Shown here piece by piece: positions 12,801 through 62,294 of a stretch of DNA of 62,877 nucleotides (position 1 is the stretch's first letter; the number at the start of each line of letters is the position of its first letter). The notes under the pieces are model-generated. The model was not told the DNA's origin and made no database searches. It saw nothing but the letters and a program-made list of their open reading frames with translations. Made by a program: the position numbers and the translations under genes. Location: the IMG/VR virus record IMGVR_UViG_3300046167_000556, positions 1 to 62,877 of that record, one strand, 5' to 3'. The DNA comes from a virus (taxonomy: Duplodnaviria; Caudoviricetes).

Positions 12801-15800
12801 CCATCTTAAATATCCCGGTATTAGAGCTTCGTTTTTAGCTAATATCTTAAAAGCTTTAGAATTTAAGTATTCAAATAAAACTGTATTTGCTTTCCTTGCT
12901 GCTTTTATTTTTTCACTAAATAGTTCTTGAAACTCTTGCGCTTTTTGCTCAGCAGTTCCTTTGCTATTCGCTTGCCAACTTAAAATATCTTTGTAAAGTT
13001 TGTTACTACGTGATACTACAAATATATCGTTTTTAACAGCTTCAACCGCAGCAAAACCAGGATCAACAACTTTTATGTTTAAGGCTTTTTGTATAAACTT
13101 TCTTAAAGGGTTACTAGTATTTATGTACCTGCTGTGAAAACCTAAAAACGTTTTTGAAACACCTGGTATTTTAAATAATCCCGCAGGAACTATTTCTGCT
13201 AATTTTTCAGAAAATGCTGCTAATTCTTGTAACCCCTGTTCACTAGCGGTAGTATGCTCCGCGTATTGATTAAAATATTTTTGATACTCTTTAAAGTTTT
13301 CTATTTCCTTTTTAAACTTAGGGCTTGTAAAAACTGTTCTAACACCAGCTGAAATCTTATTAAAAGGTTTCGACCAGTAGTTATCCCATTCATCTTTTAC
13401 TTCATCAGATGAGTTTTCATACCATTCTATAAAAATCTTCAGAAGATTGATCAAACCTATTATCAACAAGTATGCTCGCGCCTACTAGAATGTCTTTACT
13501 AATTGAAAACTTAATATTACCTCTTTCAATTTGACGAGACATATCTTCTTCAAAGTTTTCTGTAATAACAACACCTAAAGCTTCTTGATTATTTTTTAAT
13601 GCTTCAGAAATAGGTCCATCTGTTTTTAAATCCTGATTAATAATATCAAAAGCAATTTCTTCACCCATAGCTTTAGCTAAAGATTCTTTTCTACCTCTAA
13701 TAGGTTTACCGTCAGGTCCCTATAATAGAACTTAAAAATAATTCGTCCGATATAGCTTGGCTTATATTAGGTACTCTTCTTATTATTTCATTACCTGATG
13801 TTTTACCTTTTGCTTCTGTCGATGTTTTTTCTCTATCTACTTTAGCTCCTTTCCATACGTCGCTATTTACAAAATTAGGAACAAATGTAGCGTCTCCAAA
13901 AGTGTTTATAACTCTTTTACCGTCTTTATCTAATAAATATTTTCCGCCTACAGATTTTTGTATAGCCTCAGGAAATGCTTTAGTTAAATAAAAGGTTGTC
14001 ATATTCTCCAGAATAGCCTTTTTATTAGCTTTAAGATAGTTTTGCAACTCGTTGTTCTTAATACCACCCATTTCTTTTTTAAGTACAATATCGGCTTGTT
14101 TTCCAATGTCCTTTTTTATCTCGGCAATAATTGGAGGTACGCTAACGTTTTTAGTTACGGAAGCATCGAACTTAGATTTTAATACTCTAACAGATGAAAT
14201 AACTTTATCTCTAACAGTTTTTAAACCATCTGTACTTAAAACTTTTTGTTGTACTAAATTTTTATATTTAGGTTTTTCGGAGTAACTGGAGCAGTTGGTT
14301 CGCTGGCTGTAATTCCTTTTGCTTCAGATACGTCAACATCAAAAGCAGAATCTGTTACTTTACCTGTATTTAAAGCACCTTTCATTCTATTGTTTAACTG
14401 AGCCATTAAATAACCGAACAAAGAATCGTTTTGCTTTGGATCAAATTTAGCGATGTAAGGAAGCATGTTAGCTATAGTTTCACTAACCATACTGTTCATA
14501 TCAAACCCAGGGAAGCGAGTTAAGGTTTACAATATTACCTTTTTTAGTTTTAAAAACTAATGATTTAGATTTTATAAGACCTTTTAATATGGTGTATATT
14601 TTAGGATTATTTTTATTAAAACCATCAGGATTGTTACCTATGTCGTCAAGCTCTTTTTTAGATTTAGCTGTTGACTCTTTTAATGCTTGGCTATCCGCTT
14701 TAACCGGTTTTGGCTTAGCTAATGCTTTGGCTTTTTGACTTACTGCGGATTTATCAAATACTACAATGTTTTCGGTGTCTCTACCAGTTATTAAATCTGT
14801 ATCTGTAAATCTAGTTGCTTTAATACCTTTTTCAGCAAGAGCTTCGTTTAGTTTGTTTAAATCCTCTTCAGTAAAAGCATTTTCAAATCTAGCATCTATT
14901 AATTCATATAAACGAGAATCGTCTACTGTCCAACCTTCAATTCTTGGCTGTATATTTAAGTCTCTTATTACTTCAAATACTTGAGCTTCAGTAGCAATTT
15001 CAGCTTCATTTATTTTAAAGCTTTGCACTTTACCGTTGCTGCCTTTAGCATATTCTTCCGCTTGCTTTTTGCTTTCTGAAAAGTAAATATTACCATCTAT
15101 ATCGTTTACGGTTTTAACCGCTCCTCCGTGAAATACTTCAATGTCTTTTTTAGGATCCTTAGCTACTACAGCTGCTTCTGCTTTCTCAGCTCTTTCAATT
15201 TTACTCTCTAAGTTGGCCTTTTGTTGTTCGTAAACATCAAAATCAATTTCACCATCTTCATACTCCGTTTCAAGTTGCTCTAGCTGTTGATTAAACTTAG
15301 TAATACTTAACTTGTCTTTTGTTAATTTTTCATCTTCTTTACTGACAGCGGTTTTAACTATAGGATCTTGTACTGTTTTTCCTCCGAAGTGACTAGCTTT
15401 ATTATAATCTTTTACAAAGTAATATGCACTTTCACCGTCTTTTAACTGGATTGTGCTTGGAAGAAATTTATTTGCAAAAAACCTAATTCTATCGATTGTG
15501 CTTTCTGTTACTTTTTGGCCATCAGCTAATACATCAGACATAGCGTTCATCGCTTCTTCGTAGTAGTCTTTTTGCTTTACAAGCTCTCCTTCAATGTTTT
15601 TATTAGCATAACTTTCGTCAATTCTAAACTTAACTTTAGCATATAGATCAGGTTGATTTTTTTGTAAATACGTTAGTAGACTTTCTCCTGCGGCATCAAT
15701 ATTGTCTTGATTCTTACCAAAGTTTTCTCTAGCGTATTTATGTAAAACTTCATGCGCAAATATTCCTGTTCTCCTATTTTTAATAGAAGATTCCATATTA

Positions 15801-18800
15801 ATTACAATTTGATTACTTCCTGATATTGCTCCTCCTTCGTAAGATCCATTATCTATAGCTTCTCTAAGCGTTGTTTTACTGCCACTTTGTGCAGGCTTGT
15901 CTAATTTCCCTGGGTCACTTTTTTCAAAAAAAGCAATAATATCCTTTTTAGTTTCTGCAACAACAAATTCAACGTTTAAACCTATATCGTCCGCAAACTT
16001 TTGAGCGTTTGTTTGCCCTTTTTGTATTCTTGCTTTATAAGTTTTATTAACGTAATTATTTAAAGCCTTATCGTTTATTTCTTTTGCAGTAGGTTCTTTT
16101 GCTCCTTCTTTTTGTTCTTCTTTTAATAATTCAATAGCTTCATCGACTTCAGCTTGTTTTGCTTCAGGTGATAAGTTAGCAAAATTGTTTGCTACATATT
16201 GAGAGCTTTCTGCAAGCATTTTTGTTTTGTAAAACTCATAACCTTGTGAGCTATCAAAAGAAACCCCTTGAGCTGCCGCGTTTTTTCTAGCAGCTTTTAT
16301 ATCTGTTTCGTTGGTTAAAATCTGCTCTCTTTCTCCAGCTAATTCATTAAACTCTCCTCTTAGTACTTTCTCTATATTTGATAGTTCACTAGCTTTTATA
16401 TTAGGATTAGCGTAAGCATCAATTAATCTTTTATTTAGTCTACGTATTTTTTTATTAACTTCACCTACTTTTTCTAAAGCTTCTGGAGATAGGTCTGTGC
16501 CTATTTTAAATAAAACACCGTCTTCTAAAGCTTCACCTTTTTTTACTAAATCATCTACAGTTTGTTGTGTTTCTGTAGGTAAGTTTAAGTTTTTTAAAGC
16601 AGGGTCAGATGGTCCTTGAATTTCTATATTTGTTAATTTTCTTAATTTAGAAGTTATATTGAATAACTCATCAACTTCTGCTCTATTTGCTAATTCGCTT
16701 ATTACAGCTTGCTTAACACCTTTAAATGCTGTAACGGCTCCAATTCCGCCACCCATTAAAGCTCCTTGAGCAAAACTTTCAAGACCTCCTTCAAAAACAC
16801 TTTTATCTTCATTTAAGAAATATACATCTCCTATGTTTTGAAATAATGTAGTTCCAAATTCAGAGCCTCCTTCAACTCTAAGGCCTTTTTCTAATTGCTT
16901 ACTAACAAACTCAAACCCCTCTTTTACTGTTTGAGGAGGCAGCATTTTAACACCGTCTTTTAATCCTTTTAAAAGTCGCATTGTACCTATTCTTTCGAAA
17001 GCTACTTCAGCTATACCCGCTAAGGCTTGGTTGCTTAGTATTTTCCAATCTTCTATTTTAAGAATGTCTGCGTCTTTATTCATTTGGGTTTCAATAGAAG
17101 CTTGCTCCAATGGATCCATATTTGGATTTTCTTTTAACAGCTTATTATTGTTTACCATTCTTTCAGAAGCTTCTTTTTGCTTAATAGCCATTTCCATCCC
17201 TTTACCACCAGCTCCAGATAAAAAGAATAAAGGCATAGCTACAGGTCCGGTCATAGCCATACCTAAAGAAGGTAGTAAATTGGGTATAGATCCAGCAACC
17301 CATCTGCCCGCATCTTTAACGCTGCTTATTTCATCGACAGTTATTGCTCTTTGAAAGTTTTCCATTTCTTTCTGCATACTGCTACCTAATGAAACTAAGC
17401 TTGTTTGTTCTTCTACTAAAGCAGATATTTTAGCTCCAGCTGCTACTTTCATTAAAGAATAAGGATCTCTAAGAATATTTAACTGAGCCATGCTATACAT
17501 AACATCTGTACCCATTGATTTAGTAGCTGAAACGAGCTGCTCTAGTCTATCGTAATTTCTATTAAAATCGTCAATAGCGTAAGGAATAGCTTTTTCTCTG
17601 TCCGCGACACCAGAGTCCTCTAGTGTTTTTTGAGCTTTTTGCAAATCATTTTGTTGCTTTAAATAAGATGATTGCAATGCAAAGGCTTGTAGGTAGTTTT
17701 CTTTAGATTGAGTCCTACTATAATTATCTAAAGCTACTTCTAATTCTTCTTTTGTGTTAAATAGAGCGGTAGCATTGTCTTTAAAGTTAGATATTTTTTC
17801 TTCGTCCTCAGAAGCTAATGCTAATATAGACGTTCTTTGCTCAGGGCTTAAGTTGCTAACGTACTCAGAAGACTTAGCTAGGGCATAGTTGTTTCTACGT
17901 TCTCTATCGTACAAAGCTATTTCATTGTCGCTAACGTCTTTTACAAAACCATTTTTTTGGTAGTCTTTATATGCTTTAAATTCTTCAGCACTATTAAAGT
18001 CTTCTTTGGTAGCTTGTTTTTTTATTTTTTTACTTCCACTTCCTTTGTAAAACCTTGCCTCTTCAGGTTTCATTAATCCAGACTCACGGTATTCTTTAAA
18101 GGACATAGTCGATGTACTATCGTCTACCTCTTGAAACTTTTTTAGCCTTTCCGCTTTTATGCTAGAATTTAATTCGTCTTTAGTTAAGTCAGGTGCTTGT
18201 ATTTGTTCAGCATAGTTTTCATATGCTACAGATTCCTTTCCGGCAGAAGTACTTAAATAGTCTAAATTACCACTTTGCTTTATGTATTGATTAATTGCTT
18301 TTGCAGAAGCTTGTAAATCTTCTTTACTTTGATTTTTTCCAACTTTAATAGCTTTAAGAAGATCAGCTAAAATACCTAAGTTAGGATCAGCTTTATCTAT
18401 ATTTGACAACGATACTGCATCAATGCTTCCTAAAGCAGTAGCTTGCTCAACAGTTATACCTAGTCTAGAAAGTTTTTTGTTTAAAAAAGGAGCTATGTCC
18501 TCTTCGCTTCCTTTACTTAATTCTTCCGGCGTAACGTAGTATTTGGATTTTGGATCAGGATCTTGTGATTCCGATGAACCATTTTCCAAGTCTAATACCG
18601 TATCGATTGGTGTTGTTTGATTGTTTGGCAGAGCATTTACACCTGCTGCACTGCCTGTTGTATTTCCCGAGTTTTCGGTTATCAACTTTAAATTGTTTTT
18701 TTGTATTAATTCTTCTACAGAAAAACCACTGTCTGCAGCAAGTGTTAATAGTTGTTGTTCAGTTATTACTTTCCCTGTTCCTTCTTGACGGTAATCGCTC

Positions 18801-18802
18801 AT
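9815..18802 (-). CDS. Giant (~3000 aa) DNA-ejection/polyvalent virion protein, split by ~5 indels
   Basis: Last and largest of three ejection-type genes. ORFs 14501-18802, 14254-14499, 13712-14071+, 13417-13668+, 10419-13469 and 9815-10450 join by single-base shifts. Contains HEVLH, ART-like and sigma-2-like motifs. Confidence 0.75.
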
Positions 18803-21481: not shown

Positions 21482-22927
21482 TTAATATGATGATTCTACA
21501 TAGTTTGTTGATACGGCGAATAATTCTTTTTTACCACCAACGTCTGTAATATTGTCAATAGAAAAAGTAGCGGTTACAAACATTCCTTTTATACCAGACA
21601 TCGATTGGCCGTATATTACTTCACCTGGTCGACCTAAACTATTGTTCTTTATATTACTTACGTATTTGTTTTCTTTTCTGTTAAAACCAGCTCTAGACTT
21701 AGTATAAGGAGGTCTAGTAACACCGAACACGGATTGGTAATTAGCTGGTAATACAGGTTGACCTGTAGCTGGGTTTAAAATATACTCTCCTTCATTGTAG
21801 CTTTTTATAGCTAAAGTTCTATCTGAAAAATTAGCTCCATTATCTACTCCTGTAGAGTCTGAGACAAAAGAATCTATTCTCCAACCATTACTTCCTTCAT
21901 ACCCTGCGGTTGAAAAGTTCTTAGATAAAGAAACTTTAGGATTAAAAACTGTTGTAACAGTTGACTCAACAGATGATCCATAAAATTTATTATACTCTTC
22001 GCCAAAGTAATGTTTCCAAAGCCCGTTTTTACCACTATTTGGTTCTCCGTAAGTTGAGTAAAAGTTATTTTTTAAACTAAAAATATTATCAGGCTTATAG
22101 CTATATCTACTTACCCATCCTTTAGATCCTTCGTCAAAAGCCAATGTATCGTAATCTATTCCATTATTGTTTTGTAAAGAAACAACGTAAGTTTTAGTGT
22201 GTACATCAAAACCGCCTATAACAGAACCTAAATTAGAAGAATTGAAATCTATCTTTATAAACTTATCTCTGAAAAAATCTTTCATACCATATGCTGATAT
22301 TTCAGTTATTCCATCAGAAGAAAGTCTTAGTACTGCATTTCTATTCCTGTCTGTAAAGTATTTTCTATATCCATAAACAGCGAAACTACCAGGGTCTTTA
22401 GATATTCCGTACTCTCCAGCATAAGGTACTACTTGCCCAATAACTTGAGAACCAGAAGTTGTAATAGCTCCACCTTCGGCCGAATAAATAGCATCTTTAT
22501 CTATCAATGCTTTGCTTACTTTGTTTTCTTGCAGTATAGTAAGGTTAGTATTTTCAGCATACAACTTTTGAATACTACCGTTTGATGGATCCAAGCTTCT
22601 AGTAATTTCTTCGCCAACCGGGAATTGGTTAGTGTTATTAACACCTGTTCTTGAATTAAATATGCCTGAGTATATTAAGCTATTAGATACTATAGATGCT
22701 TTATTAGTATCTGCTACTAAATAAGCTTTAGCTCCAAAATCTACAGAAGTATTATTATAACCGCCTCTAATTCTAGATTCTTCAATAATCCAGTTTTTAG
22801 CATCATTGGTTCCCAGCCCGGTTGTTTTGTACCACACAGGCACATTAGGTGGATTAGCATTATCTGCTGTTACGGTCTTACGTAGTAGAAAAGAGTTAAA
22901 ATATTTTACTTCTATAATAGCGCTCAT
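21482..22927 (-). CDS. Tail nozzle/stabilisation protein
   Basis: Beta-propeller-like content (YAGEYGISKDPGSF, YFTD, GWVSRYSY). Confidence 0.7.
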   Translation of the reverse strand: MSAIIEVKYFNSFLLRKTVTADNANPPNVPVWYKTTGLGTNDAKNWIIEESRIRGGYNNTSVDFGAKAYLVADTNKASIVSNSLIYSGIFNSRTGVNNTNQFPVGEEITRSLDPSNGSIQKLYAENTNLTILQENKVSKALIDKDAIYSAEGGAITTSGSQVIGQVVPYAGEYGISKDPGSFAVYGYRKYFTDRNRNAVLRLSSDGITEISAYGMKDFFRDKFIKIDFNSSNLGSVIGGFDVHTKTYVVSLQNNNGIDYDTLAFDEGSKGWVSRYSYKPDNIFSLKNNFYSTYGEPNSGKNGLWKHYFGEEYNKFYGSSVESTVTTVFNPKVSLSKNFSTAGYEGSNGWRIDSFVSDSTGVDNGANFSDRTLAIKSYNEGEYILNPATGQPVLPANYQSVFGVTRPPYTKSRAGFNRKENKYVSNIKNNSLGRPGEVIYGQSMSGIKGMFVTATFSIDNITDVGGKKELFAVSTNYVESSY

Positions 22928-22932: not shown

Positions 22933-22960
22933 TATAATTACTTGTTTACAATGTTATTTA
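22933..22960 (-). promoter_or_regulatory. Class II (phage-sigma-type) promoter
   Basis: TAAA-N15-GTAATTATA just upstream of ATG 22927. Confidence 0.7.
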
Positions 22961-32571: not shown

Positions 32572-32597
32572 GATATGATATTATAAAATTAGTAAAT

Positions 32598-32625
32598 AGT
32601 TATCACCTAGGTTCAAACTGCTCTA
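32598..32625 (-). promoter_or_regulatory. Class II promoter variant
   Basis: TAGA-N15-GTGATAACT upstream of the scaffold/capsid genes. Confidence 0.55.
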
Positions 32626-38548: not shown

Positions 38549-38576
38549 TATAATTACCTAAAATTCAAGCAATTTA
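38549..38576 (-). promoter_or_regulatory. Class II promoter
   Basis: TAAA-N15-GTAATTATA upstream of the packaging operon. Confidence 0.7.
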
Positions 38577-43708: not shown

Positions 43709-43736
43709 TATTATTACATGTTTCCCCTATAAATTA
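43709..43736 (-). promoter_or_regulatory. Class II promoter variant
   Basis: TAAT-N15-GTAATAATA upstream of groEL. Confidence 0.55.
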
Positions 43737-49700: not shown

Positions 49701-50759
49701 AGCATAATTTGTTGCTGATTCCCTTTCCATGACACTATTAGCGAAAGATTCACTAAGGTTAGTTATATTACCTTCAGCGTCATATTCCCCAAAACTACCC
49801 GCTAAGTTTGTAGCAAAAGTAGAATTATTACCAATGTCAGTCGTATGCGTTTGTAATGTCTGTGTAGCAGTCGCACTAGAATCCACCAATGACCCAATAC
49901 GAGAATCATCGGTTTCTTGCCATTCCTTCGGAGGCCCCTCTACTAACATGTATAATTTATTCCCCTCTGATGTATTATACCACAATGATCCAGCAGGCTC
50001 GTCAGTGGCAGGTATATCATTTTGCCTAAATATATTTGGTTTAGTAGAAACAGTTGAAGAGAGATTTGTTACGCTTTGCGATGTAGCGTAGTCAGTTGTG
50101 TTTTCTGTAGACATTACGCTATTTGCAAATGACTCAGACAATAACCCTGTTTCAGTATCAAAAATCCGTGAGGTAAGATTTGTTACATCAGACGTTCTTG
50201 CTAAGTTTTCTGTGTTTGAAGTGCTAAGTACATTATTAGCAAATGACTCAGAAAGAGATACTAAGTTACCGTTTTCGTCAAACGTACCTAATTCGCTTTG
50301 CAGTATGGTAAAAGATTCAGCGCTTGCCAAATCAGCTGTAGATTCGCTCATTAAACCTTGCACAGCTACTGTATCAGAATATGAAGCCAGCCTTCCGTTT
50401 ACATAGCTTTGGTAATCTGTTTGTACCTGCATCTCTATCCGACTAATAGCTCCGTTTAAATTAGCTTGTGTTTCAATTTTTAATTCGGCTAAGCCGGAAG
50501 ATATAGTATCTACGGATCCTGCGGTCGCATATCCCCCTATAGTTAAAACGTTATCTTCAATACTCATATAATCCTGAAGTTCTGAAACGAAGTCTATAGC
50601 AGATGGGTTATTACCTAATTGAATAAAGCCAGATACATAGTCCGCTACCTGACCTATCGATACAGAAAGAGTACGTTGCTCTTCTGTGGAATCTGATAAA
50701 AGCAACACATCATCTCCAGTTAAGTTTTCTACTCTAGGATAACTGTATATTGTAGCCAT
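43749..50759 (-). CDS. Long tail fibre (2336 aa) with C-terminal S74-type intramolecular chaperone
   Basis: SDKRLKENI...YGFLAQEV, Gly-X-Y stretches, YGLQVDANGNVAGMKL segment and duplicated modules. Confidence 0.9.
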   Translation of the reverse strand: MATIYSYPRVENLTGDDVLLLSDSTEEQRTLSVSIGQVADYVSGFIQLGNNPSAIDFVSELQDYMSIEDNVLTIGGYATAGSVDTISSGLAELKIETQANLNGAISRIEMQVQTDYQSYVNGRLASYSDTVAVQGLMSESTADLASAESFTILQSELGTFDENGNLVSLSESFANNVLSTSNTENLARTSDVTNLTSRIFDTETGLLSESFANSVMSTENTTDYATSQSVTNLSSTVSTKPNIFRQNDIPATDEPAGSLWYNTSEGNKLYMLVEGPPKEWQETDDSRIGSLVDSSATATQTLQTHTTDIGNNSTFATNLAGSFGEYDAEGNITNLSESFANSVMERESATNYADAQKLTELGAIVSTKPNVYRQDDTPSIYSDSTSEQVIPDASIWYDTNDNNKVYIVDEDPSNVGVRIWTLTDDSRIGATASKITSMSAKFGSFDTNNNFSISGSSDYLDTVITTVDTDSATASKVSNLGAELGAFDSDNNFNTSLSADFKTAVNNEVDANSATAGYVNNLSAAVGIDKLDGTPQSQATALVNGSAGAPVTATLDGAVSGTKQLVLTAANSDIEVGQYVTYSAQDSTINRDLRWRVEAIEQENIFLDNEIYLENETTVSFTGNTSITVDNVSGTIREGFQIKGAGITPGTFVSVVDGNNITLSLAENLADDTELEFLGIYAAVKETANVVARVDGALESTYGLQVDANGNVAGMKLLANNEGSEVSFLADSFKIYNDSSSTAPFEVVDGVVKIKQGAIGTITFGDLSDVPASFTTTVIYAEDTVGTNASTTKGTLTHIAFYNGEWTDGDSVSGITFDKIAGTDGTSVNIIGSVDTVNDLPTSGVTNGDGYLVDGNLYVWDGSAWVNAGNIQGPQGIPGANAKTVKLSPSKHFISYSTVYDEVDDKLIDVETDAITFTTTPQNIEGTAGYEFYVGDNKKQELGLLSTFTLPEEDEPSSGENVVVKVKLYDDDTLVAEDSISIYGVKDGYSPVKGRDYDDGIAGNNVIVEYSIDGGTWVTTQAAGETYYYIRTGVQTNGEGDFVYGPATKFVPEKGVDYDNGDPGVSSYLHIKYSNDGANFTLPDGEDVGDYIGTYVDSTEADSTTFSDYTWKKILGESALTSFLTNATHTISADSDGNVTGEYSEAGGAFKVLLGTTDITSQCEFAKIEENGVGVTIDNNSDNDTPKGVYIISQMTADSGTAIFQATVPNSLANTDEDVILTQTYSISKSKAGTNGADAKVVKLNPSKHVINYSTAGAETDTIIFNAVGQNVEGTATYRYYINDEAQGDAASSTSTFTLLDASEPASGDSVVVEVELYDDGTLVATDEVTIYGVQDGSDAPTAFLTNAAHVVSAAADGTVSSYTGSGGTFKVFVGNADVTTSCAFEVDSQNEITASIDSSGVYTISDLQANNGFAVFKATIPAATANAASDVILTAEYSISKSIAGADGPKGPSGADGIDGTDGAYVSFIYKVSDTQPEAPETGSYNGTTETIPAGWTDDPTASVDDTEWVSSVRYYNTKTFDSNGDLLTNTWSKGEWSTPAIYYQRGAEGTNGLPGLDGANGGRTAKGVVFYQSGKATAPTQLSSSSYAFDFNEGSFINLPSYWGTETPEMAAGTASNQYWSSSYYVTENEVHHLSDPIDWYRGNGASVSYASGEPGVYTISRTIAAQDPYIATHGVQASSATYWKDSGTVSVWARGSGRLRLRLQEHGSDYTPYENLEVTLTNTFVKYSLTGVNVNDGNNPQITLTLLEGDEVDIYNPLLIADNSGVGRVVFQPPVRSFAFNQVVTFSALEESGSTEINGGNIKTGIISSKNYQHTTTPTEGFSDKGMAVNLDNGSIHAEKFFINADGTAKFNGIHEAGKLGNWVVTNNALKSGHSNPSIVLDPTGRFPSTGYGEITIAATNLPSITPVSYVDTNFTGNQGGMATASTINSSGNIVFSDIVEYANASVEDNTTYTATGSSIVFKFTGFIPEKRGGLGLDIPLDLVASGYRLGYTNPQTCEPEHPDVWVSAPVSYDYKLTAEITFTITNEDGSTSEKEVKQVLADRNVQRDVGNTLSRYGGISVDYGGTYNENTGEPNGCGPWNFYYDDIAGSTFAGPADQIGGTLNDLEINSEIKVTQFKLKHEWKNLTVKTIQSSSYTGPKTVTAYASVRENSGLQPVVFRENSGTNKRVVLAENGLQVRSNDGYAAIGDVTAGTNVAEFWGDIQVAGDTSSYTTSVLAASSFSDKRLKENIKEIEDPINIVNQLAPVKYDWKSNLSSRKDLSVKLEDKYGFLAQEVKEVIPTAILQNKNKIHGIENPLSVEYNNIIAINTAAIKELITKINELEKEIESLKQ

Positions 50760-50788
50760 ATATTACTTTTTGTTTGTTTTTTTCTTTT

Positions 50789-51105
50789 TTACACCCATGG
50801 TATCCCCTTTTTAAGCGGAGGATTCACAATAGCTTCCTTGTTAGCTAAAGCTGCTGCGTCTATATTTGTTTCTGTTTGTAAAACAACCTATTGCCCCCAG
50901 ATCATCTTTAACCCAGCCCAATACTACTTCTTCAGTAAGATCTTCATAGGGAATATAGTCAGTCCCCCGGTACACCCTTGTATTCACTAATAAACACTTC
51001 ACGAGCATAACCAGGACCGTCTGTTTTTTCGCATACCGTAGTAACTTCCGCTACATACCCATCTGATACTCGATGATTCATTTCTAATACTTTCCAATTT
51101 GCCAT
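50789..51105 (-). CDS. Small tail-fibre-associated protein (frameshifted)
   Basis: MANWKVLEM...YIPYEDLTEEVVLGWVKD...GIPWV. Confidence 0.6.
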
Positions 51106-51115
51106 TTGTTTTATT

Positions 51116-52408
51116 TTATGTCATTCTTATTTTAACTGTACTTCCAGTTCTATATAATTGTCCTACTTCAACTCCGCCTGCCGCTGCTGCCGTGTCATCC
51201 GTATAAGAAGAGCTATAGAGCAAAGCCCACGCCATAATCTGCATAGAGTCACCCGCACTTGTATCGCCCGCGGATGTTGGTTTGCCCCTGAACTCCCAAG
51301 CTGTTCGTCTTGTTTCATTGTTTACCCCAACCCCGAAAGCTACGGTTGACCTGCCGTTTGGGTTATCAGACCTAAGAACAGTAGGGTCAGAAAATTGCCC
51401 TAGAATAATAGTATTGTCCGTAGCGGGTTTATTTTCTCTACCGATTAAATAAGTTCTTTTTTTGTCTAAAACATCGTTGTGATCTCCTATTGCAAATGAT
51501 TTAAAATTAATATTATAATTTCCAAAACCAAATGCATATGCTTTTTCAGAGGCATTGAGGCTATTGTTAGTACCAACGGCCGCAGATGCAGAACCTACAA
51601 CTGTATTAGACTTTCCAAAAGCATATGACTCATCACCAGTAATTGCATTTTGTTGACCAACTGAATATGTTCTATCAGCAGTAGAACTATTACCAGCACC
51701 AATAGTATAAGCCCCTTGATTGTCGCTGTTTACAATATTATTCGTACCTAAACAAACTATACGATCACCTAAAACATTGTTTAAGTGCCCAAATACCAGT
51801 ATAGACCCAAAACCATCACCTGTTTCCGCAACTATATTTCTATCACCTAAAACAATAGTGTCAATAGAATCTACGGTGTTATCTCTACCAATTACAAATT
51901 GTCTTGGAACGCCTGAAGAAGTAACATTATCAACACCAGCCACAAAGCTAGTTCCGCTATTTGTTTGGTTCCTTTGCCCAACGGTTAATGAATAACTACT
52001 GTTAGCTCGATTATCTATACCTATAACAGCTGAGTCTGAAACATCTGTCGATGTTACTTGGTTATCAACCCCTACAGCCAAGAGTTTTGTTGTGCTCGCT
52101 ATAAAGACATTGCCGTTACCCACAGATAAAGTATAGTTAGCTCCCAATTCAGGATCATTAACTCTTATCGGTATCCCTATAGTAATATTGTTACCATTAT
52201 GTTGTTTAATAGCAGAGTCACCTATGGCCCTGGCATCTGTAAATACAGGTATTGTGTTAACTGTACCGTTTACATTATCAGGTTTTTCTGCCAAGTCAAT
52301 TATTGATCCTACTGTAAAGTTTTTTGTTACTTTACCTGTAATATCAGTACCTACTATTAAATCCCCCGACTCAGGAGTTACCGTCGGGTATGAATAAATT
52401 ATTGCCAT
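51116..52408 (-). CDS. Tail spike/fibre with YadA-head-like beta-roll repeats
   Basis: ~14-residue S-x-x-x-G-x-x-N repeats; MAIIYSYP N-terminus. Confidence 0.8.
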   Translation of the reverse strand: MAIIYSYPTVTPESGDLIVGTDITGKVTKNFTVGSIIDLAEKPDNVNGTVNTIPVFTDARAIGDSAIKQHNGNNITIGIPIRVNDPELGANYTLSVGNGNVFIASTTKLLAVGVDNQVTSTDVSDSAVIGIDNRANSSYSLTVGQRNQTNSGTSFVAGVDNVTSSGVPRQFVIGRDNTVDSIDTIVLGDRNIVAETGDGFGSILVFGHLNNVLGDRIVCLGTNNIVNSDNQGAYTIGAGNSSTADRTYSVGQQNAITGDESYAFGKSNTVVGSASAAVGTNNSLNASEKAYAFGFGNYNINFKSFAIGDHNDVLDKKRTYLIGRENKPATDNTIILGQFSDPTVLRSDNPNGRSTVAFGVGVNNETRRTAWEFRGKPTSAGDTSAGDSMQIMAWALLYSSSYTDDTAAAAGGVEVGQLYRTGSTVKIRMT

Positions 52409-52754: not shown

Positions 52755-52766
52755 CATGCTCTCATA

Positions 52767-52815
52767 ATGCGACGTTAGCCTCTTACTATTATATATAACT
52801 ACCTATTGTCGCACT
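52767..52815. repeat. ~50-bp palindromic element, copy 1 (others at 54250-54298 and 60730-60780)
   Basis: TGCGAC-NN-TAGCC, AT-rich core, CTATTGTCGCA. Confidence 0.8.
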
Positions 52816-53204
52816 GCGGATCTTTAGAATTTTTAATAAAAAATTTTTTGTTAGATACAGGGAACTATGGGGTTATATACTATATTCTACTGACATAAAA
52901 AAATAATAAACCCGTTTTGTTTTGACCCAGTCCCCGTGTGTTTTTACGCTTTCGGGATAGGCTTTTGCCTTTCGTATGGTTTTCCTGCAATATGTTGAGG
53001 TATTCGGGACTTGTACTGCTGCGGCGTGCGCTTGATCCTGTGCTGGTCTGATCTGGTCCTGGTCTCTGATGCTTGTGCTTGACAACCTCCCTTGATGGAA
53101 GCGGAGCGTAGCAAAGCGTATAGCATTTACAAAGTAGATACGAAGTATATTTGATAATATAAGTGAATAAAGAAATTAATAATAATAATTTAAAAATAAT
53201 AAAA

Positions 53205-53348
53205 ATGTCTTTAACAAAATCAATTAACATTACTTCAAAAGATTTCAACAACATTGAAAAAGTATTTCATACTTATCTTCAAAATAATCCAAAAGATCAA
53301 TCAACATTAAAAACAATACAATCTATAATTAATCAATCCATAGATTAA
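53205..53348 (+). CDS. Early hypothetical protein (47 aa)
   Basis: ATG after an A-rich leader downstream of the first motif. Confidence 0.6.
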   Translation: MSLTKSINITSKDFNNIEKVFHTYLQNNPKDQSTLKTIQSIINQSID

Positions 53349-53463
53349 ACCTCCCCTCGAGGAGCCATCGAAATCAAAGTATAATTACAAAGTAGATACG
53401 AAGTACTACTGATAATATAAATGTAACTAAGTAAATAATAATAATAACTAAATAAATTAAATT

Positions 53464-53784
53464 ATGACTAATCAAGAATTAATGACTCAAGCGATCGCAA
53501 ACATGACTAACGAAGAGAAAGCAAAGATCTTTCCACCAATCGAACGTAAGAACTTCGTAGTAAGAAAATCATGGCTCGGACGAAACCAAGTAATCAAATT
53601 CGTCAACAACAAAAATCAAGTTGTAACGTACAACCACGATACCATACTTGAAGCGATGTTACCTAAACTAAGTATAATGCCATGTTGGATCAAACGAGGA
53701 TACTGGTCTCAATCAACTAACTTACCAACCAATGTTAGGCATCTAGCCGAGATCATTGATCAAGAAGTCGAGGTAACTAAATAA
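53464..53784 (+). CDS. Early hypothetical protein
   Basis: 106-aa ORF after the second motif. Confidence 0.75.
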   Translation: MTNQELMTQAIANMTNEEKAKIFPPIERKNFVVRKSWLGRNQVIKFVNNKNQVVTYNHDTILEAMLPKLSIMPCWIKRGYWSQSTNLPTNVRHLAEIIDQEVEVTK

Positions 53785-53872
53785 CCTCCCTTGATGGAAA
53801 CCCCTAATCCATCTTCCTTTACAAACTGAATACGAATAGTAACTGATAATATATACGAATAACAAATAAATT

Positions 53873-54022
53873 ATGAATACACGATCAAAACAAACCGAAT
53901 ACTTAAAAAATATTATAACCGATCTGGAAAATAAAAACGATAGAATCGCATTACTATGGACTTTAGCAAATAGTAAGAAAATAAACAGAAGACAGTTCAA
54001 AGAATTAATTAACAAACTATAA
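53873..54022 (+). CDS. Early hypothetical protein (49 aa)
   Basis: Manually read ORF after the third motif. Confidence 0.6.
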   Translation: MNTRSKQTEYLKNIITDLENKNDRIALLWTLANSKKINRRQFKELINKL

Positions 54023-54106
54023 TAACATGAAAAAAGTAATCACGAAAGTAATAAACGAATTAAAACTAATGCGCTAAAGCAATTCATTCAATAAAACAAT
54101 AATACT

Positions 54107-54247
54107 ATGTACGAAAAAAAGATTATAACAAGACAAGACGGATCAACATACGAATCATACTTTTGGAAAACAGTTGCTGATCTGCAATGGACCGAAGCTC
54201 AAGAGCAGATGCAAAAAGCTATCGATCAGTTCGGAACCTCATCTTAA
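54107..54247 (+). CDS. Early hypothetical protein (46 aa)
   Basis: MYEKKIITRQDGSTYESYFWK... Confidence 0.55.
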   Translation: MYEKKIITRQDGSTYESYFWKTVADLQWTEAQEQMQKAIDQFGTSS

Positions 54248-54249
54248 TA

Positions 54250-54298
54250 ATGCGACAGTAGCCTACTATTATAATATATAACAGGCTATTGTCACACT
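54250..54298. repeat. Palindromic element, copy 2
   Basis: ATGCGACAGTAGCCT...AGGCTATTGTCACACT. Confidence 0.8.
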
Positions 54299-54837
54299 GT
54301 TTAATTTTCCCAGCCGTTACCTAAATAAAGTAACGAATATGGAGCCTGATCTTGAAATATGATCGGAAGAGTAGACTCCGTCCTACACCAAAGTGTATAG
54401 CATCACCTAACTTTCAGCGATCTATTAGATTTTCTAGTGAAAATTACCGTTTATTTGATGTATAGCATTTACAAAGTCGACACGAACACCTTTTGATAAT
54501 ATATATGAATTAAAATACTAACAATAACTACTAAAAACTAACTAAATGATCGTTTTAAACCGAATAACCTAGGAGAGATATTACTACCGACTACTTAAAG
54601 TTGATGAAAGGTGAAATAACTAACGCTGAATTCGAAGAAATTGCAGGTATACCAAGGGATTTGGACCTAGAGAAGAGGTGAGTTACAACTACAACACTAT
54701 TCGATCGATGAAATAAAAGTACACCTATTTGAATTTACAAACTAAATACGATAGAGTATTGATAATAATAGTGTAACAAACAATAATTAATAACTAAGTT
54801 GACTATATACTATGTCCACTGTAAAATACCAATAAAT

Positions 54838-55613
54838 ATGGAGCAATACGAAGAATTACACCAAAAGTTGCAAGAAGGAACTATAACACCTAACGAACTT
54901 AAATTACTAAATCACTTAGCTTTCGGAACTCCCTTCATGAACTCTAACAACAAAGGAACTAAAGTAAAATACTATTAAAAATGGAAAATAACCTACTAAA
55001 CTATATTGATTTTACATCAATAACCGAAGATTTCGATCTAAAACACGGAGATATATCACCTTATCAAACCGTAAAACTAGAAGAATTGTTAAAACAATTT
55101 ATTGACCAAAATAGTGAAGGATTTATAAAATAACTATATATGAAAGAATTTTACGAATTTTCAAGTGAATTAGAGTATGAAGAGTATGCACAATTAATGT
55201 GGTTAATCAATAATAATAAAGTATAATATGGAACTATCAAACACGGAAACAAATGTACTATTGGTCGCGTTAGACCATATGGAAGAAGAAATACAAGACC
55301 TAATGCAAGAACGTGAACTACGCGGTGATATGTGGCAAGAACGGTTAAATGCGTGTGAATCTATAAGAACTAAAATTAAACAACTATGATGACAATGAAA
55401 GAAGCGTGCGAATACGTTAAAAACCAAAAAGTAGCGAATGCTATACGTCGTAACAATGTCGTTGCGATCAACGGATCTTGTAGTGGAGTAACGGAAAAAC
55501 AGTACAAAAGTATTAAGACCAAAGCAAAAGGTGCGGGGAGTCGCGGTAGAAAGCACTCACACACCGCTCTATGGAATCACTACAACGAACCAGTAAAACA
55601 ATTTACAAACTAA
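54838..55613 (+). CDS. Run of early microproteins (54838-54978, 54981-55133, 55228-55389, 55386-55613)
   Basis: Closely packed ATG ORFs after the motif at 54734. Confidence 0.6.
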
Positions 55614-55661
55614 ATACGATTACCGATCGATAATATATATGAACTTAAAATAATAAAAGAT

Positions 55662-56402
55662 ATGAAAGTATACTCAAATGACATCCCGACCATCAAGTAC
55701 CTAAAATCAAACGAAATTAAATTAGACGGTAGAAAATACAAAGGTTATAACGTCGGTGAATTACCATCTCGCTTCGCTTTTATCTACGACGACAACGAAG
55801 AACAAGACGGAATTACAGAGTGGTTCAACCACAAAGGATTAACTTATGTACCTAAAAACTAATGAATACTATGAAAACAAATGATAAATTAAATGCGGTA
55901 GAACATATATGGTATGCCGAATCCGATCGGTGGATCTACATCGAACGATATGCAAGTGGTTACTTAGGTTTAAACTTCATGCAAGGTGACGAGTACGAAC
56001 ACTTTAAAATTAAGTGGTGCGAGATCGATAGAGGTATGAGTGAATTCTATGACACTATGAAAAACGATCTTTTGAAATTAAGAGTTGAAATGAGTGAGTT
56101 AGAGTTTATCGACAAAGTAATGTGGATCTACTTCGAAGCTAAAGTAAAATATGACGAAAATAAATAATGAGATATATATACACTAAACGTAAATGGAAAA
56201 CAACATGGAAAATAAATTAGAAGAAATAGCACAAGGAGTGGCCGATGTCACACTAGAATTAATGGAAGATAGTGTTGATTGGCAACTAGCGGATTTCCCT
56301 CAAGACGGCGACGAATACGGTGCTATACACTCTAAAGTAATGCACCTTGCAATCAAGCAAATGTATTTACAAACTAAACACGATAGCGGATCGATAATAT
56401 AA
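55662..56402 (+). CDS. Three early hypothetical proteins (55662-55862, 55862-56167, 56193-56402)
   Basis: ORF track; cassette between two motif copies. Confidence 0.7.
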
Positions 56403-56522
56403 TTGAATAACGATAAGACTCAACAAGTTATAATCTACGAACCCAGCGGCACAGCGGTGGTAGTTAGTTATAAATGTGAGTAATAGGCGACAGATACGAT
56501 TAACGATCACGTAATAGCCGGC

Positions 56523-56634
56523 AACTAGGTATGGAGCGCTAGTGGTACAAGCACCTTTGAATACTCTTCAAAGCCAGAGACCCGAAGCAACACTACTGAC
56601 GAGTATGAGGGTTCGATTCCCTCGCTAGTTACTA
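56523..56634 (+). ncRNA. Atypical tRNA-like RNA
   Basis: Perfect T arm GAGGG-TTCGATT-CCCTC, acceptor AACTAG/CTAGTT, D-like arm GCT-AGTGGTACA-AGC and hairpin CTTTGAA/TTCAAAG, all in an ORF-free gap. Confidence 0.6.
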
Positions 56635-56651
56635 ATTTAAAATTAAATATT

Positions 56652-57335
56652 ATGAGTAAAATTAAAAAAGTAGATGAAGTTGTAGATTTTAGTGTGTTCA
56701 CTAAATTTACTAAAGACTTAGGATTGTTTCAAGTCAATGCAAGTGTATGGAGTATGGTGTCTCAAGATTGCACCAATAGTCACGACATATCCGACATTGA
56801 ATTAGATTTTTCAATAGACAATAAAAGATGCAAATACAACGGCTTTAAAGAGATCTATGAAAAACTATACGGTATAAACACTTTCAACCAATTTACAGCC
56901 GAATTAATGGCGGAATTTGAAAAAGCATATTTTAAACAAACAACCTATAAAACTAAATAATATGAGTAAGACTAAATTTAACGGATTCGAAAAGTATTTT
57001 ATCCAAACAGCGTTGAGACACGCTATTGAAGAAGCAGAAAAAGATGTGTTAGCTGCCGAAGCTGACGGTAAAAGATCTATATATGCACCGGGTTATTTTA
57101 CTATGGTGGGTAATGAGATCATTGACAAAGTAAATAGTATGACACTTAAAAAATACCAAGACTAATGAGAAACGAACTTAAACAAGTGTTAATGGAACGC
57201 GACGGTATGACCGGTATTGAGGCAGATCTAGAGATCAAAGATATACGATCTAGAGTGTATAAAGGCGAAGACGCTGAAACAATATTATTCGAAGAGTACC
57301 GATTAGAACCTGATTACTTATGGGATTTAATATAA
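56652..57335 (+). CDS. Three early hypothetical proteins (56652-56960, ~56962-57165, 57165-57335)
   Basis: Coupled ORFs. Confidence 0.7.
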
Positions 57336-57396
57336 TTTACAAACTAAATACGAACAACTATTGATAATATAATTGTAACAAACTAAATATAATAAT

Positions 57397-58554
57397 ATGA
57401 AAACATTACTAGAACGCCTTAAACCTGAAATTAAACTAAGATTAGAAGCAAACACCTCTCAGTACACTAGTACTGTTGATAATATCTTTAAAAACCTTTC
57501 ATCAAAAGTTTTTTATCAAGATCTAACTATGAGTGAAATAAGTACGCTATACACATTCTCTGACATAACGTTATTGAAAACGTCTATATGGGATCTAAAA
57601 CACGGCGATAACCTATTTATAACAGAGTATGATGACTAAACAAGATATACATAACCGAGCAAGTGATAAAGCTTTCGCTAAAATGTCTATGCTTACATTC
57701 GAAATAACTGACAACAAAACATCGTTAATGACCGGCAACTACGGCGGCGATATAACTGAAGAAGAAATGAGAATGATCTTAGATAGTAATAAAGTAGAGT
57801 TAAAAGTGTGGAATTACATTGCTGAATTAATAGAAAAAAATGAATAAAACTAAATATATAACAGACGAATTGATCAACGAACGTTTAGAAGCTAAAGGTT
57901 TCGGTGATAAACAAACAGAAGACGACGAGGTTGCTAGAACAAACGTATTAAACCATTATGGCGTTGAGCTAACTAGCGACTGGACTAGTAGAGCATCATA
58001 TTATATATATGAAGAAACTACTAAAGACGGTTACTCTGTGTATGTAGCTACCGACGACACTGACAACATAAGTGTATGTGAAGATATATACTACTATGAT
58101 AGTGATCTCGCTGATGTACTTGAAGAACAAATCAAGTATTCCAACGGTGATGAAGATTACCCTGAGATAATATATGTAGACGATCTTTACCAAGACTTTA
58201 TTGACGGAGCTATTGAGAATTTATTTATATATTTATCAGAAAAGTTTGAAGAAGAAATTATTGACGAATTAATAGATGAAGGTTATGAGCAACAAGACTA
58301 AAGAACAAACAGTACCTAAATGGTTTAAAGGTATGATCTACGATCAAGGTGAAGAAGTTACAAACCCTTTTAGCGGTCAATGCTATACACTTACCGGTAT
58401 CGAGTTGTCTATGTACGACTTTATTCTCGGATGCCAATACATAATGGAGGTCGCACCTAAAACAGTGACACCCAAGCAAGTAAACGACTTTAACAAAGCG
58501 TTAAGCTGGTTTCGTAAAAATAATACCGAAGCATATATGGTGCTACTCGATTAA
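57397..58554 (+). CDS. Four early hypothetical proteins (57397-57639, 57629-57847, 57840-58301 acidic, ~58285-58554)
   Basis: Overlapping ORFs between two motif copies. Confidence 0.7.
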
Positions 58555-58699
58555 TTTACAAACTAGACACGATCAATAACTGATAATATATTTGTATGAA
58601 CCCAATAAATTTAATGCTACTGGCTGTATTTGCTCTAACTTTTATAGGTCCTATATACCTAGACTGGCAAATGCGAAAAAAAGATAACGAAGAATAATT

Positions 58700-59305
58700 A
58701 TGAATTTACTAACACAAAACTCTAAACTTAAAAAAACATCAAAAGTACTCGGGCTTCGGGTCTTTAACTTTGGTATTCCTGCCTACAAATCGTCAAGTGG
58801 GAAACTAACGTGCCCAATGGCTGACGGATGCATAAAATTCTGTTATGCCAAGAAAGGAGCCTACATCTGGAGTAATGTAAAACCGGCGTTTGAAAACCGT
58901 TATGAACTTAGCAAGACAGATGACTTTGTCGATGCGATGAATAACGAAATACGTAAGAAGAAACCTGATTACGTGAGAGTCCACGATAGCGGAGATTATT
59001 ACTCTACTGCGTATCTAAAAAAGTGGATCAAGATTGCAAACGACAATCCCGACGTGCGGTTTTACAGTTACACCAATATGATCGATATGATGCTAAAAGC
59101 TTCATTGCCAAGTAATTATGATATAATATTTTCTGATTCAGGAAAGCAAAAACATTTAATAGATGAAAGAAAACACAGACACACCAAAATATTTTCTAGT
59201 CATAGCGATCTTATTTCTGCTGGCTATACTGACGCTTCATCTACTGATCTAATGGCTACTAGATGGTTTAATGATACAAATAAAGTAGGGTTAGTATTTC
59301 ACTAA
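58700..59305 (+). CDS. Gene product 88-like protein
   Basis: TCPMADGCIKFCYA, VRVHDSGDYY, FYSYT. Confidence 0.75.
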   Translation: MNLLTQNSKLKKTSKVLGLRVFNFGIPAYKSSSGKLTCPMADGCIKFCYAKKGAYIWSNVKPAFENRYELSKTDDFVDAMNNEIRKKKPDYVRVHDSGDYYSTAYLKKWIKIANDNPDVRFYSYTNMIDMMLKASLPSNYDIIFSDSGKQKHLIDERKHRHTKIFSSHSDLISAGYTDASSTDLMATRWFNDTNKVGLVFH

Positions 59306-59698
59306 AATAATAAATTATGCACAAAGAACCTTTAAAAATTACATTAGAGTTTTATAATAAAGAAATCTCTACACAAATAGATCATTCAGATTTAACTCTT
59401 GAAGAGCTCCATGAGTTATGGCTAGAAATAGTTAAAGCTATGGGTTACCACCATAAAACAATAAAAGAATTTTATGAGTAATAATTTAGTATTAAAACAA
59501 ATTAACAATAACGTAAATGATAAACGCAGTATGGAGAGAGAAGAATTAATAAAATTAATAATGGAACGTATCTACACTAGACGCATATACGCTGAGAAAT
59601 TAGCTGACGACATATTGCGTTTATCTAGTTTTAAGCACAGTAAATAATTTACAAACACGAACAATAAACGATAATATAATAAACAAAAACAAAAACTT

Positions 59699-60662: not shown

Positions 60663-60729
60663 AAAAAATATTTATTAAAAATAAATATATAGAAACCCGA
60701 AAACAAACAACTGAAGCATCGATTACGAA

Positions 60730-61392: not shown

Positions 61393-61485
61393 CACAAGAA
61401 TTCAACGAATGGATGGCGAAGATAGGTAATATACACTATGCTAATGACAATTTAATGGCAAAAGCATTTAATAGGATAGAAGAAC

Positions 61486-62247
61486 ATGAAAAAATATAAC
61501 ATACAAAACTATGTAAGATACAAAGCTGATGTTAAACAATCTATTGCTCGGCTTGAAGGTAAATTTTGGGACGAGTATACTAAAGAAGAACTAATTATAA
61601 AGTTTTTACCTTTAACAGAGAACATAGCTAGAAAGTTTTCAACTTCTGATCAAGCATCAGGAGTTTTAAGTATTAATGACTTAATACAAGAAGGTTCTAT
61701 AGGTTTAGTTAAAGCTATAGGTAAACTAGATATGAACAGAGTAATTGAATCTAACGATCCTGAGAAGACATTAAAATCATTCTTAGCTAAACGTATTAAA
61801 GGATCAATTAGACGCGCTATAGACATTAATAGAGGTAATATTCGTATACCCGAGTACAAGTTAAATGAGATAAGAAAAGACTTTGGTAAAGATAAAGCTT
61901 TAGTAGCTATGTTTTTTAATAGTATATTTTTGAGTATTGATATACCAGCTAATGAAGATGACGATAACTTTGCGTTTCAAATACCAGATGAATCTGAACC
62001 TTATAATATAGCGTTGATGAATGTTTACTTAACTAGCTTATGTAAAAAGTATTTAAGCGATAATGAATATGAAGTACTAAGGCTTAGCTATGGGCTTGAC
62101 TGCGAAAAACTACCAGGCAAAGAAATAGCTGAGGTATTAAATATGACTGGCCCTAGTGGTTATGTAAGAGTTTCAGAGCTTAAAAAGCAAGCTGTGAATA
62201 AATTAATCGACTCTGTTGACCACACGCAAGTGCTTGACTTCCTTTAG
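61486..62247 (+). CDS. Phage-encoded sigma70-family sigma factor
   Basis: Region 2 (LPLTENIARKF, DLIQEGSIGLVKAI, IKGSIRRAI), IRIP, region 3 LSID and region 4 HTH (VLRLSYGL...KEIAEVL...RVSELKKQAVNKL). Confidence 0.92.
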   Translation: MKKYNIQNYVRYKADVKQSIARLEGKFWDEYTKEELIIKFLPLTENIARKFSTSDQASGVLSINDLIQEGSIGLVKAIGKLDMNRVIESNDPEKTLKSFLAKRIKGSIRRAIDINRGNIRIPEYKLNEIRKDFGKDKALVAMFFNSIFLSIDIPANEDDDNFAFQIPDESEPYNIALMNVYLTSLCKKYLSDNEYEVLRLSYGLDCEKLPGKEIAEVLNMTGPSGYVRVSELKKQAVNKLIDSVDHTQVLDFL

Positions 62248-62266
62248 ATTAAAGTAAAAATAATTG

Positions 62267-62294
62267 TAAAACCCTGTTTGTATATGTAATTATA
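62267..62294 (+). promoter_or_regulatory. Class II promoter for recombination/replication operon
   Basis: TAAA-N15-GTAATTATA immediately after the sigma gene. Confidence 0.7.

Follow-up and report, generated by a model that had tools for sequence, protein, structure and literature searches.

The virus record IMGVR_UViG_3300046167_000556 of IMG/VR, analysed here over its whole length (62,877 bp, hereafter the window; completeness 98% by CheckV), encodes a giant, putatively ejected protein that contains a domain resembling region 2 of sigma factors (sigma2), and this domain is the new and interesting element of the genome. A preliminary description of the same DNA had proposed that the domain is delivered from the virion and directs host core RNA polymerase (RNAP) to early (class I) promoters, after which a newly made phage sigma factor fires a second class of promoters (class II); the link between the domain and class I is contradicted by the distribution of the domain in relatives. 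The reading that we prefer, with a probability of about one half, is that a lytic podophage of marine Flavobacteriia without a polymerase of its own runs an ordinary phage sigma cascade and carries, as an accessory, a probably injected RNAP-docking module that is not the class I reader. The coordinates of the features are collected in Table 1.

A sigma region-2-like domain and its partner in a giant protein

For structural characterization of the sigma2-like segment, a combination of AlphaFold2 (AF2) modelling and fold comparison was used. The AF2 model (predicted local distance difference test, pLDDT, 71) contained a helical domain at residues 1–104, with block pLDDT values of 56–84. In a VIA fold search of 48,161 PDB chains, the top match was 7d7d_F (Z 7.4, root-mean-square deviation 3.3, 90 aligned residues, 12% identity), which we take to be T4 gp55. 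Sigma factors or sigma-like domains made up about 26 of the 35 rows at Z ≥ 5, those at Z 5–6.9 being SigK, SigC, CnrH, SigR, SigB, SigH, SigW, sigma28, sigma32, sigma70 and RpoS region 2; in this count, 22 of the 50 rows listed had sigma in the title, and the rest were assigned from PDB matches of the free phage sigma described below or from the known identity of the chains. Because sigma entries fill so much of the list at Z ≥ 5, where the neighbouring domain has no row at all, the sigma2-like fold is hard to ascribe to chance, and judging from the model the giant protein likely contains a true fold of this kind.

Weak signals in the same direction could be seen at the level of sequence. The profile phrog_234, 'late sigma transcription factor', matched at E 0.0046 over 29 residues, and hhalign placed the segment onto residues 33–111 of the free sigma, in the register of region 2 (P 0.013, probability 3%). 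The phrog_234 match agrees with the best structural match, T4 gp55 being a minimal late sigma that consists of region 2 only. T4 gp55 is, however, a free protein of 185 amino acids (aa), made after infection and working with gp33 and the gp45 clamp, whereas the domain described here lies inside a protein of about 2990 aa. A complex prediction for the sigma2-like construct A1 (residues 1–105) with residues 200–380 of RPOC_FLAJ1 gave a median of 0.30 against a mark of 0.32; having been run without controls, it was given no weight.

The sigma2-like domain is followed by a highly conserved domain of 260 aa, and the two are referred to here as the module. Across 24 sequences, the 260-aa domain has 37 invariant columns (e.g. 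in KKAILENMTT and RGRKESLAKA), and its AF2 model is confident (pLDDT 84.1, predicted template-modelling score 0.79). No fold match could be found for it by Foldseek against the PDB (best E 0.14) or by VIA (best Z 4.2, no chain at Z ≥ 5), and ESM Atlas gave no usable match. Neither a sigma region 4 (sigma4) nor a helix-turn-helix fold was among the rows listed by the fold search, and Pfam detected no Sigma70_r4; going by the model, the domain is probably not a sigma4 and is a candidate new fold. Because it combines a confident model and near-invariance with the lack of a fold match, it is a good target for structural and functional work. A T7-like motif reading of this domain (K..MT..Y, TDxxGR) was rejected by eye because the order of the motifs is wrong.

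The giant protein as a candidate polyvalent-type protein

Although the giant gene falls into six pieces in the window, it is a single open reading frame (ORF) in relatives (L001, 2545 aa; L002, at least 2788 aa), whose giant proteins tiled the window from 18802 to 9818 in tblastn. At 13431, 13717/8, 14278/80 and 14509/10, exactly at the four ORF breaks in that stretch of the gene, contigs of four runs, each from a different study, show single-base insertions or deletions (indels) relative to the window; a fifth break, near 10430–10447, was bridged by tblastn with the relatives' giant proteins, joining ORF 9815–10450 to the gene. Since independent contigs correct the breaks and relatives carry one ORF, the assembly contains indel errors and the gene is continuous over the interval in Table 1. 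When a 421-aa central stretch was searched with phmmer against 1.84 billion representatives, 250 clusters were obtained at E ≤ 0.001, nearly all of them proteins of 2500–3300 aa.

Candidate features of polyvalent proteins could be recognized along the sequence. A zincin-type HExxH motif, a candidate for the MPTase of such proteins, was found by regular expression in the window protein and likewise in P0001 (714), P0002 (1016) and the giant proteins of 5/5 further relatives. Directly upstream of the sigma2-like domain, a weak ART-PolyVal-like segment matched PF18760 over profile positions 17–126 of 140 (E 0.0017; 19.6 bits, below the cut-off of 31.2); this segment is present in P0002 and missing from P0001. 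The middle of the giant protein varies between relatives and its C terminus is conserved, residues ~2170–2787 of P0002 being 41–49% identical by BLASTP to the giant proteins of relatives G002, G005, G008, G014 and G016. The gene is the last of the structural arm. A syntenic 3694-aa gene of Elemovirus NC_055853.1 carries the annotation 'structural protein', as a label only, and the syntenic 3859-aa protein of the uncultured podovirus MW202828.1, compared with the giant protein by BLASTP, reached E 0.057 at best, which is not significant.

Polyvalent proteins have been described as injected, self-processing effector carriers with MPTase and ART domains (Iyer et al. 2017, PMC5512222). The window protein resembles them in its giant size and multidomain make-up, in lying among virion genes, and in combining a zincin-type HExxH motif with a weak ART-PolyVal match and with conserved ends around a variable middle. 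It differs in the module: the word 'sigma' occurs 0 times in the main text of that paper, whose supplementary domain tables might list such a domain, and the sigma2-like and 260-aa domains match no Pfam family.

No recognizable phage RNA polymerase, and the class I early promoter motif

No match to PF00623 or PF00562 was found in the six frames of the whole record, both families being matched in 14/14 control genomes, and PF00940 gave no match in the six frames in a search that had no positive control. No polymerase emerged when 70 ORFs or pieces of ORFs were compared with Pfam or PHROG, and the DxDxD motif was absent from the giant-protein relatives P0001 and P0002. The giant protein could still harbour a polymerase that has diverged very far. 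A 2336-aa ORF at 43749–50759 was considered as a hidden virion RNAP and rejected, as it is a tail fibre (Peptidase_S74 end at E 4e-14, matches to tail-fibre genes). The virion RNAPs of N4-like and crAss-like phages are alike in that a giant ejected protein solves early transcription without host-type promoters, and those of N4-like phages are noted in PMC5512222 as fused to MPTase domains; they differ from the present case, in which no polymerase motif or family was detected.

The early genes are headed by the class I motif, TTTACAAAsTnrAyACGA-N8-yGATAATAtAnnTG, which spans 36–40 bp and occurs in 10 strict copies and one variant, all on the plus strand; a half-site lies at 5706. The Bacteroidota sigmaA promoter has the consensus -33 TTTG / -7 TAnnTTTG. 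No class I copy fits TTTG-N17–21-TAnnTTTG, nor could a -33 element be found in the copies at any spacing of 17–23. The canonical pattern has no match in early intergenic DNA, and its 5 matches in the window (2.6 expected) all lie in coding or antisense DNA. Both starting points of the preliminary description, that the phage has no RNAP gene and that the motif departs from the host consensus, were thus confirmed, the former as far as the searches reached. A point that it missed is that the 3' end of class I, TAtAnnTG, resembles a weak -7 box, the copy at 58556 reading TATATTTG. Downstream of one class I copy, about 250 nucleotides (nt) at 56400–56650(+) are free of ORFs.

Class I was detected in at least 120 viral stretches of IMG/VR. 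In genomes, 26 exact matches were obtained in 596 billion bases, all of them in metagenome-assembled genomes (MAGs) and many in binned phage DNA; class I was accordingly rejected as a common host promoter, and the chromosomal copies do not settle which factor reads it.

It is possible, if doubtful, that class I is a strong promoter of non-canonical type, made of the -7-like TAtAnnTG and conserved upstream blocks that serve as UP-like or factor sites, that the host holoenzyme itself recognizes it, and that the sigma2 likeness is a chance helical bundle unrelated to RNAP. The resemblance of the 3' end to TAnnTTTG speaks for this, as do the constancy of the motif in many phages, as would be expected of a conserved host reader, the modest sigma2-like Z and the failure of sequence profiles to call the domain. 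In addition, chromosomal stretches of Flavobacteriaceae MAGs carry the full motif ahead of small secreted or membrane ORFs, at 1–2 copies per genome. Set against these points are the missing -33 element, the rarity of the motif in genomes, which is not that of a common host promoter class, and the prevalence of sigma factors among the fold matches, for which chance is a poor explanation.

Complete class I motifs with the same block spacing were observed in chromosomal contexts on contigs of Flavobacteriaceae/Bacteroidetes MAGs (Table 1), 25–40 nt ahead of small signal-peptide ORFs or of membrane-anchored ORFs of 446–460 aa without a Pfam match. In L178, the copy lies between SnoaL, SDR and Nramp genes, with M48 and TPR genes also nearby. 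Such copies could be host genes answering a phage-type promoter signal, captured early cassettes or a sign of a host reader. A further genome, G040, has 18 class I copies on apparently binned phage contigs; on one of these (C7, MAG CBDICL010000005.1, 117 kb), clusters at 51.1–55.4 and 113.7–116.6 kb lie ~62 kb apart, which suggests that a phage genome, assembled to more than a single unit, ended up in the bin of a Flavobacteriaceae MAG.

Distribution of the module and of class I among relatives

Co-variation between the module and class I was examined from both directions. With sampling by module, class I was present at up to 2 mismatches in 10 of 12 contigs, in up to 10 co-oriented copies. 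With sampling by motif, 25 near-complete contigs were obtained, of which 11 carried the module (5 strong and 6 weak matches) and 14 had none detectable. Five of these 14 were taken whole (G002, G005, G008, G014 and G016). Their giant proteins, of 2314–3227 aa, have the HExxH motif and the C-terminal ~500 aa in common with the window protein (41–49% identity); the hallmark motifs of the module are absent from them. Six-frame searches with hidden Markov models likewise failed to detect the sigma2-like segment or the partner domain in the five genomes (best E 0.15; positive controls 1e-18 to 1e-114), and Pfam found nothing relevant in the giant proteins of three of them. Each of the five nevertheless has 3–8 co-oriented class I copies and a free sigma gene. 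Because module-less relatives keep class I, the module appears to be optional cargo on which class I does not depend, and on these sequence comparisons the sigma2-like domain is probably not the class I reader.

Among module-bearing phages, the sigma2-like segments are 8–27% identical to the reference and share no invariant column, and the three blocks of the class I motif are unchanged. Further afield, MW202828.1 has neither class I nor a free sigma; Elemovirus NC_055853.1 has no class I at up to 3 mismatches and is not among the 6 tblastn matches of the free sigma in 50,697 phage records.

The mechanism of the preliminary description, in which the virion-delivered domain, perhaps freed by the HExxH peptidase, serves as the specificity factor by which host core RNAP reads class I, class II being left to the free sigma in a second step, is therefore not borne out, and we regard it as very unlikely: 5/5 complete relatives examined combine class I, a free sigma and a homologous giant protein with no detectable module, 14 of the 25 motif-bearing contigs lack it, and the motif stays constant while the supposed reader diverges. 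No sigma4-like part was recognized in the module either, its second domain having no fold match. The idea draws on the sigma2-like fold, on the failure to find an RNAP gene, on class I having no -33 box in an early region without canonical host promoters, and on the occurrence of class I in most module-bearing contigs. MW202828.1, which lacks the motif, has no significantly similar giant protein, Elemovirus is likewise without the motif, and the giant protein is unmatched in cultured phage records. In addition, the adjacent invariant domain could provide further DNA contacts for a 36-bp motif.

The free phage sigma and class II

The free sigma is a protein of 253 aa of the sigma-70 family, closest to FliA/sigma-28. 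Sigma70_r2 matched at 26.1 bits (cut-off 24) and Sigma70_r4 at 20.1 bits (E 4.6e-4; cut-off 24.1), and the six-frame match exceeded the cut-off. Its best solved relative in the PDB is FliA (E 6.9e-8), and SigA chains match over residues 28–240. At least 8000 relatives were found in metagenomes at E ≤ 0.001, and a free sigma (47–68% identity) was present in 24/24 related viral contigs searched, namely 22/22 near-complete contigs picked by motif and two picked by giant gene. The presence of a free sigma implies the use of host core RNAP.

The class II motif, TAAA-N15-GTAATTATA, occurs in 3 exact copies in the window against 0.01–0.03 expected. No copy has one mismatch, and the ~20 copies with two mismatches compare with 11.8 expected; GTAATwATm could be seen by eye ahead of ~6–8 gene starts. 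The motif is kept in 5/5 relatives, with 1–3 copies each at up to 1 mismatch, and a copy lies 13–20 nt past the sigma gene in the window and in 4/5 relatives (G007, G029, G002 and G001). The preliminary description was right to place a sigma gene at the end of the early arm; its statement that class II stands before every downstream operon was overstated.

TAAA-N15 is the layout of sigma-28 promoters, sigma-28/FliA promoters being TAAA-N15-GCCGATAA. As a putative promoter, the class II motif is alike in this spacing, which matches the kinship of the free sigma to FliA, and differs in its -10 part, which is GTAATTATA here. The host phylum is not known to have a flagellar sigma. The arrangement resembles phage sigma cascades, examples of which are SPO1 gp28, phiEco32 gp36 and T4 gp55, in having a free sigma at the end of the early region and a promoter class of its own ahead of later genes. 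That the new sigma fires class II, the second step of the mechanism first put forward, is plausible as an ordinary phage cascade in view of the conserved order of sigma gene and class II and the FliA kinship; the use of the promoters is something that we infer.

A related possibility, to which we assign a low probability, is that the free sigma reads both classes, class I being a stronger form with extra upstream blocks, so that the sigma operon would amplify itself after slight read-through by the host enzyme. The two classes do share a layout (T-r-r-A, 14–15 nt, G-n-n-A-n-TATA), and a likeness can be seen between yGATAATA and the core, CGATAA, of the -10 elements of sigma-28. Free sigma and motif are both strongly conserved, co-occur in every motif-picked contig (22/22; 24/24 with the two giant-gene-picked ones) and are both missing from MW202828.1; in G007, 5 nt separate the end of a class I copy from the sigma ORF. 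Yet the first round of sigma synthesis would be left unexplained, the numerous small cassettes that precede the sigma gene, with promoters at their heads, resemble a classic pre-sigma early region, and two clearly distinct motifs argue for two readers.

A proposed docking module as accessory cargo

In the reading that we prefer, about eleven class I promoters would drive small early cassettes, the last being an operon that ends in the FliA-like phage sigma. This sigma would then read class II, first right behind its own gene, before the recombination and replication genes, and also before several late operons. The giant late-arm protein would be a modular polyvalent cargo that probably travels in the head and leaves it along with the DNA, and its two-domain module, carried by the window phage and several hundred relatives and here lying beside the weak ART-like segment, would offer the sigma2-like domain as an RNAP-docking handle for the core site of sigma region 2. 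On infection, docking could place the adjoining effector domains on the host RNAP or set the module in competition with the sigma of the host. The module would thus be an accessory takeover device, and class I would be read by a factor common to all these phages, either the host holoenzyme or the conserved phage sigma. The analysis documents the motifs, the genes, the likeness in fold and the distribution among relatives; packaging, binding to RNAP and the pairing of factors with promoters are inferred from these.

The proposed role is comparable to that of T4 Alt, a non-essential, head-packed ART that acts on host RNAP at entry, according to the passages on it in PMC7824862 and PMC5512222; the former, a review of jumbo phages, names ART and GNAT domains among the injected modifiers of RNAP. 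In the window, too, an ART-like segment adjoins the sigma2-like domain. There is, however, no homology to Alt; the ART-like segment scores under the Pfam cut-off and is absent from the close relative P0001.

A number of observations weigh against this interpretation. The Z values of 5–7.4 fall in a range that VIA itself calls common for helical bundles. Foldseek of a 400-aa model against the PDB and BFVD gave nothing at E ≤ 0.001, sigma entries appearing at E 0.15–2.6; Pfam Sigma70_r2 was detected in 0/24 members at E ≤ 5 and in none of the window pieces, and a profile search of PDB sequences returned no sigma among 8 matches at E ≤ 10. The region-2-like domain announced in the preliminary description was supported by fold and weakly by sequence. 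No homologue of the giant protein was found in 50,697 cultured phage records, so that its packaging in the head and ejection with the DNA, which we consider probable, are argued from the position and size of the gene, the 'structural protein' label of the syntenic Elemovirus gene pointing the same way. No canonical host promoter was seen in the early region. Finally, co-occurrence is high when sampling starts from the module, the motif being present in 3/3 complete module-bearing contigs, and the five module-less giant proteins could hold an equivalent that has diverged beyond recognition.

In a wider and more tentative form, a large clade of marine Flavobacteriia phages may pack a giant protein with a sigma region-2-derived domain that docks on the host RNAP clamp once ejected, aiming the adjoining effector domains, namely the ART-like segment and the 260-aa domain, at the polymerase or displacing host sigma; the boldest version of this tentative idea adds that the docked domain also initiates at class I in carrier phages, another device serving in the rest. 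If true, this would be the first case of a virion delivering a sigma-derived module. An RNAP-docking domain of that origin within an ejected polyvalent protein would represent a novel type of host-takeover cargo; no such domain was found in the literature searched or in the main text of the polyvalent-protein paper (PMC5512222). The start of transcription in Bacteroidota phages that have neither their own polymerase nor host-type promoters is poorly known, and the clade is abundant in seawater, as the numbers of free sigma relatives and motif-bearing viral stretches attest. As natural relatives with and without the module have the same early promoters, the hypothesis becomes a clean experiment.

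Genome organization and further features of the window

By sequence, the window is the genome of an uncultured seawater podophage, which its portal places near phages of Flavobacterium and Cellulophaga. Portal identity is 55% with MW202828.1 and 44% with Flavobacterium 'elemo' podophages, followed by Cellulophaga and Tenacibaculum phages; near-identical DNA is found on contigs of seawater runs from several studies, and RNA runs contain small shares of the window (0.05–0.14). From ~53.1 kb through the record end to 9.7 kb, the plus strand carries small early ORFs and then the genes for sigma, ERF, a PDDEXK protein, primase-helicase, ThyA, a MazG-like protein and both ribonucleotide reductase subunits. 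The minus strand at 9.8–53.3 kb carries virion, lysis and chaperonin genes.

Table 1. Positions of the features discussed (window coordinates unless a contig is named)
Feature	Position	Strand	Remarks
Giant gene, ~2990 codons, polyvalent-type putative virion/ejection protein	9815–18802	-	Six ORF pieces; 5 single-base frameshifts in the assembly
Conserved C-terminal region of the giant protein	10548–11990 (approximate)	-	Common to all relatives examined
Highly conserved 260-aa domain	13504–14278	-	After the sigma2-like domain; crossed by two frameshifts in the assembly
Sigma region-2-like helical domain	14350–14662	-	Crossed by one frameshift (~14510) in the assembly
Weak ART-PolyVal-like segment	14741–15145	-	Directly upstream of the sigma2-like domain
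HEVLH, zincin-type HExxH, candidate MPTase of polyvalent proteins	15740–15754	-	Regular expression
Class I, strict copies (start positions)	513, 53127, 53385, 53819, 54469, 54735, 55603, 56367, 57337, 58556	+	
Class I, nine of the ten strict copies	53127–58588	+	Each 20–45 nt ahead of a small early ORF or the ORF-free stretch 56400–56650
Class I, tenth strict copy	513–545	+	Beyond the sigma gene and ERF
Class I, variant	~59646–59680	+	5 nt shorter; heads the operon whose last gene is sigma
Class I, chromosomal contigs	L178:4273–4305; L172; L166:151–183; L164:3775–3807; L171		
Free sigma-70-family gene, 253 aa, closest to FliA/sigma-28	61486–62247	+	
Class II, exact	62267–62294	+	20 nt past the sigma stop codon, 26 nt before the ERF gene
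Class II, exact	38549–38576	-	Upstream of ORF 38064–38519
Class II, exact	22933–22960	-	5 nt upstream of structural gene 21482–22927
Class II, degenerate (2 mismatches)	43709–43736	-	Upstream of GroEL-like gene

Judged by ORF layout and not from reads, further apparent frameshifts lie at 30726–30969, 32438–32603, 34787–35011 and 50759–51116, and the genes affected include the portal N terminus, the capsid region and GroEL, split at 43214–43245. The phage GroEL (Cpn60_TCP1; 41431–43672, minus strand) is in two ORFs, 43214–43672 and 42118–43245, and GroEL/GroES are also encoded by the related Elemovirus and MW202828.1. Over the whole of the window, no tRNA was predicted by ARAGORN. The start of the early region is flanked by a 53-nt direct repeat (52764–52816 and 54247–54299, 81% identical) with an internal, palindrome-like AT-rich core, and a 201-aa ORF of the early arm (58700–59305, plus strand) matched GP88, a family of unknown function (PF17338, E 2e-40).

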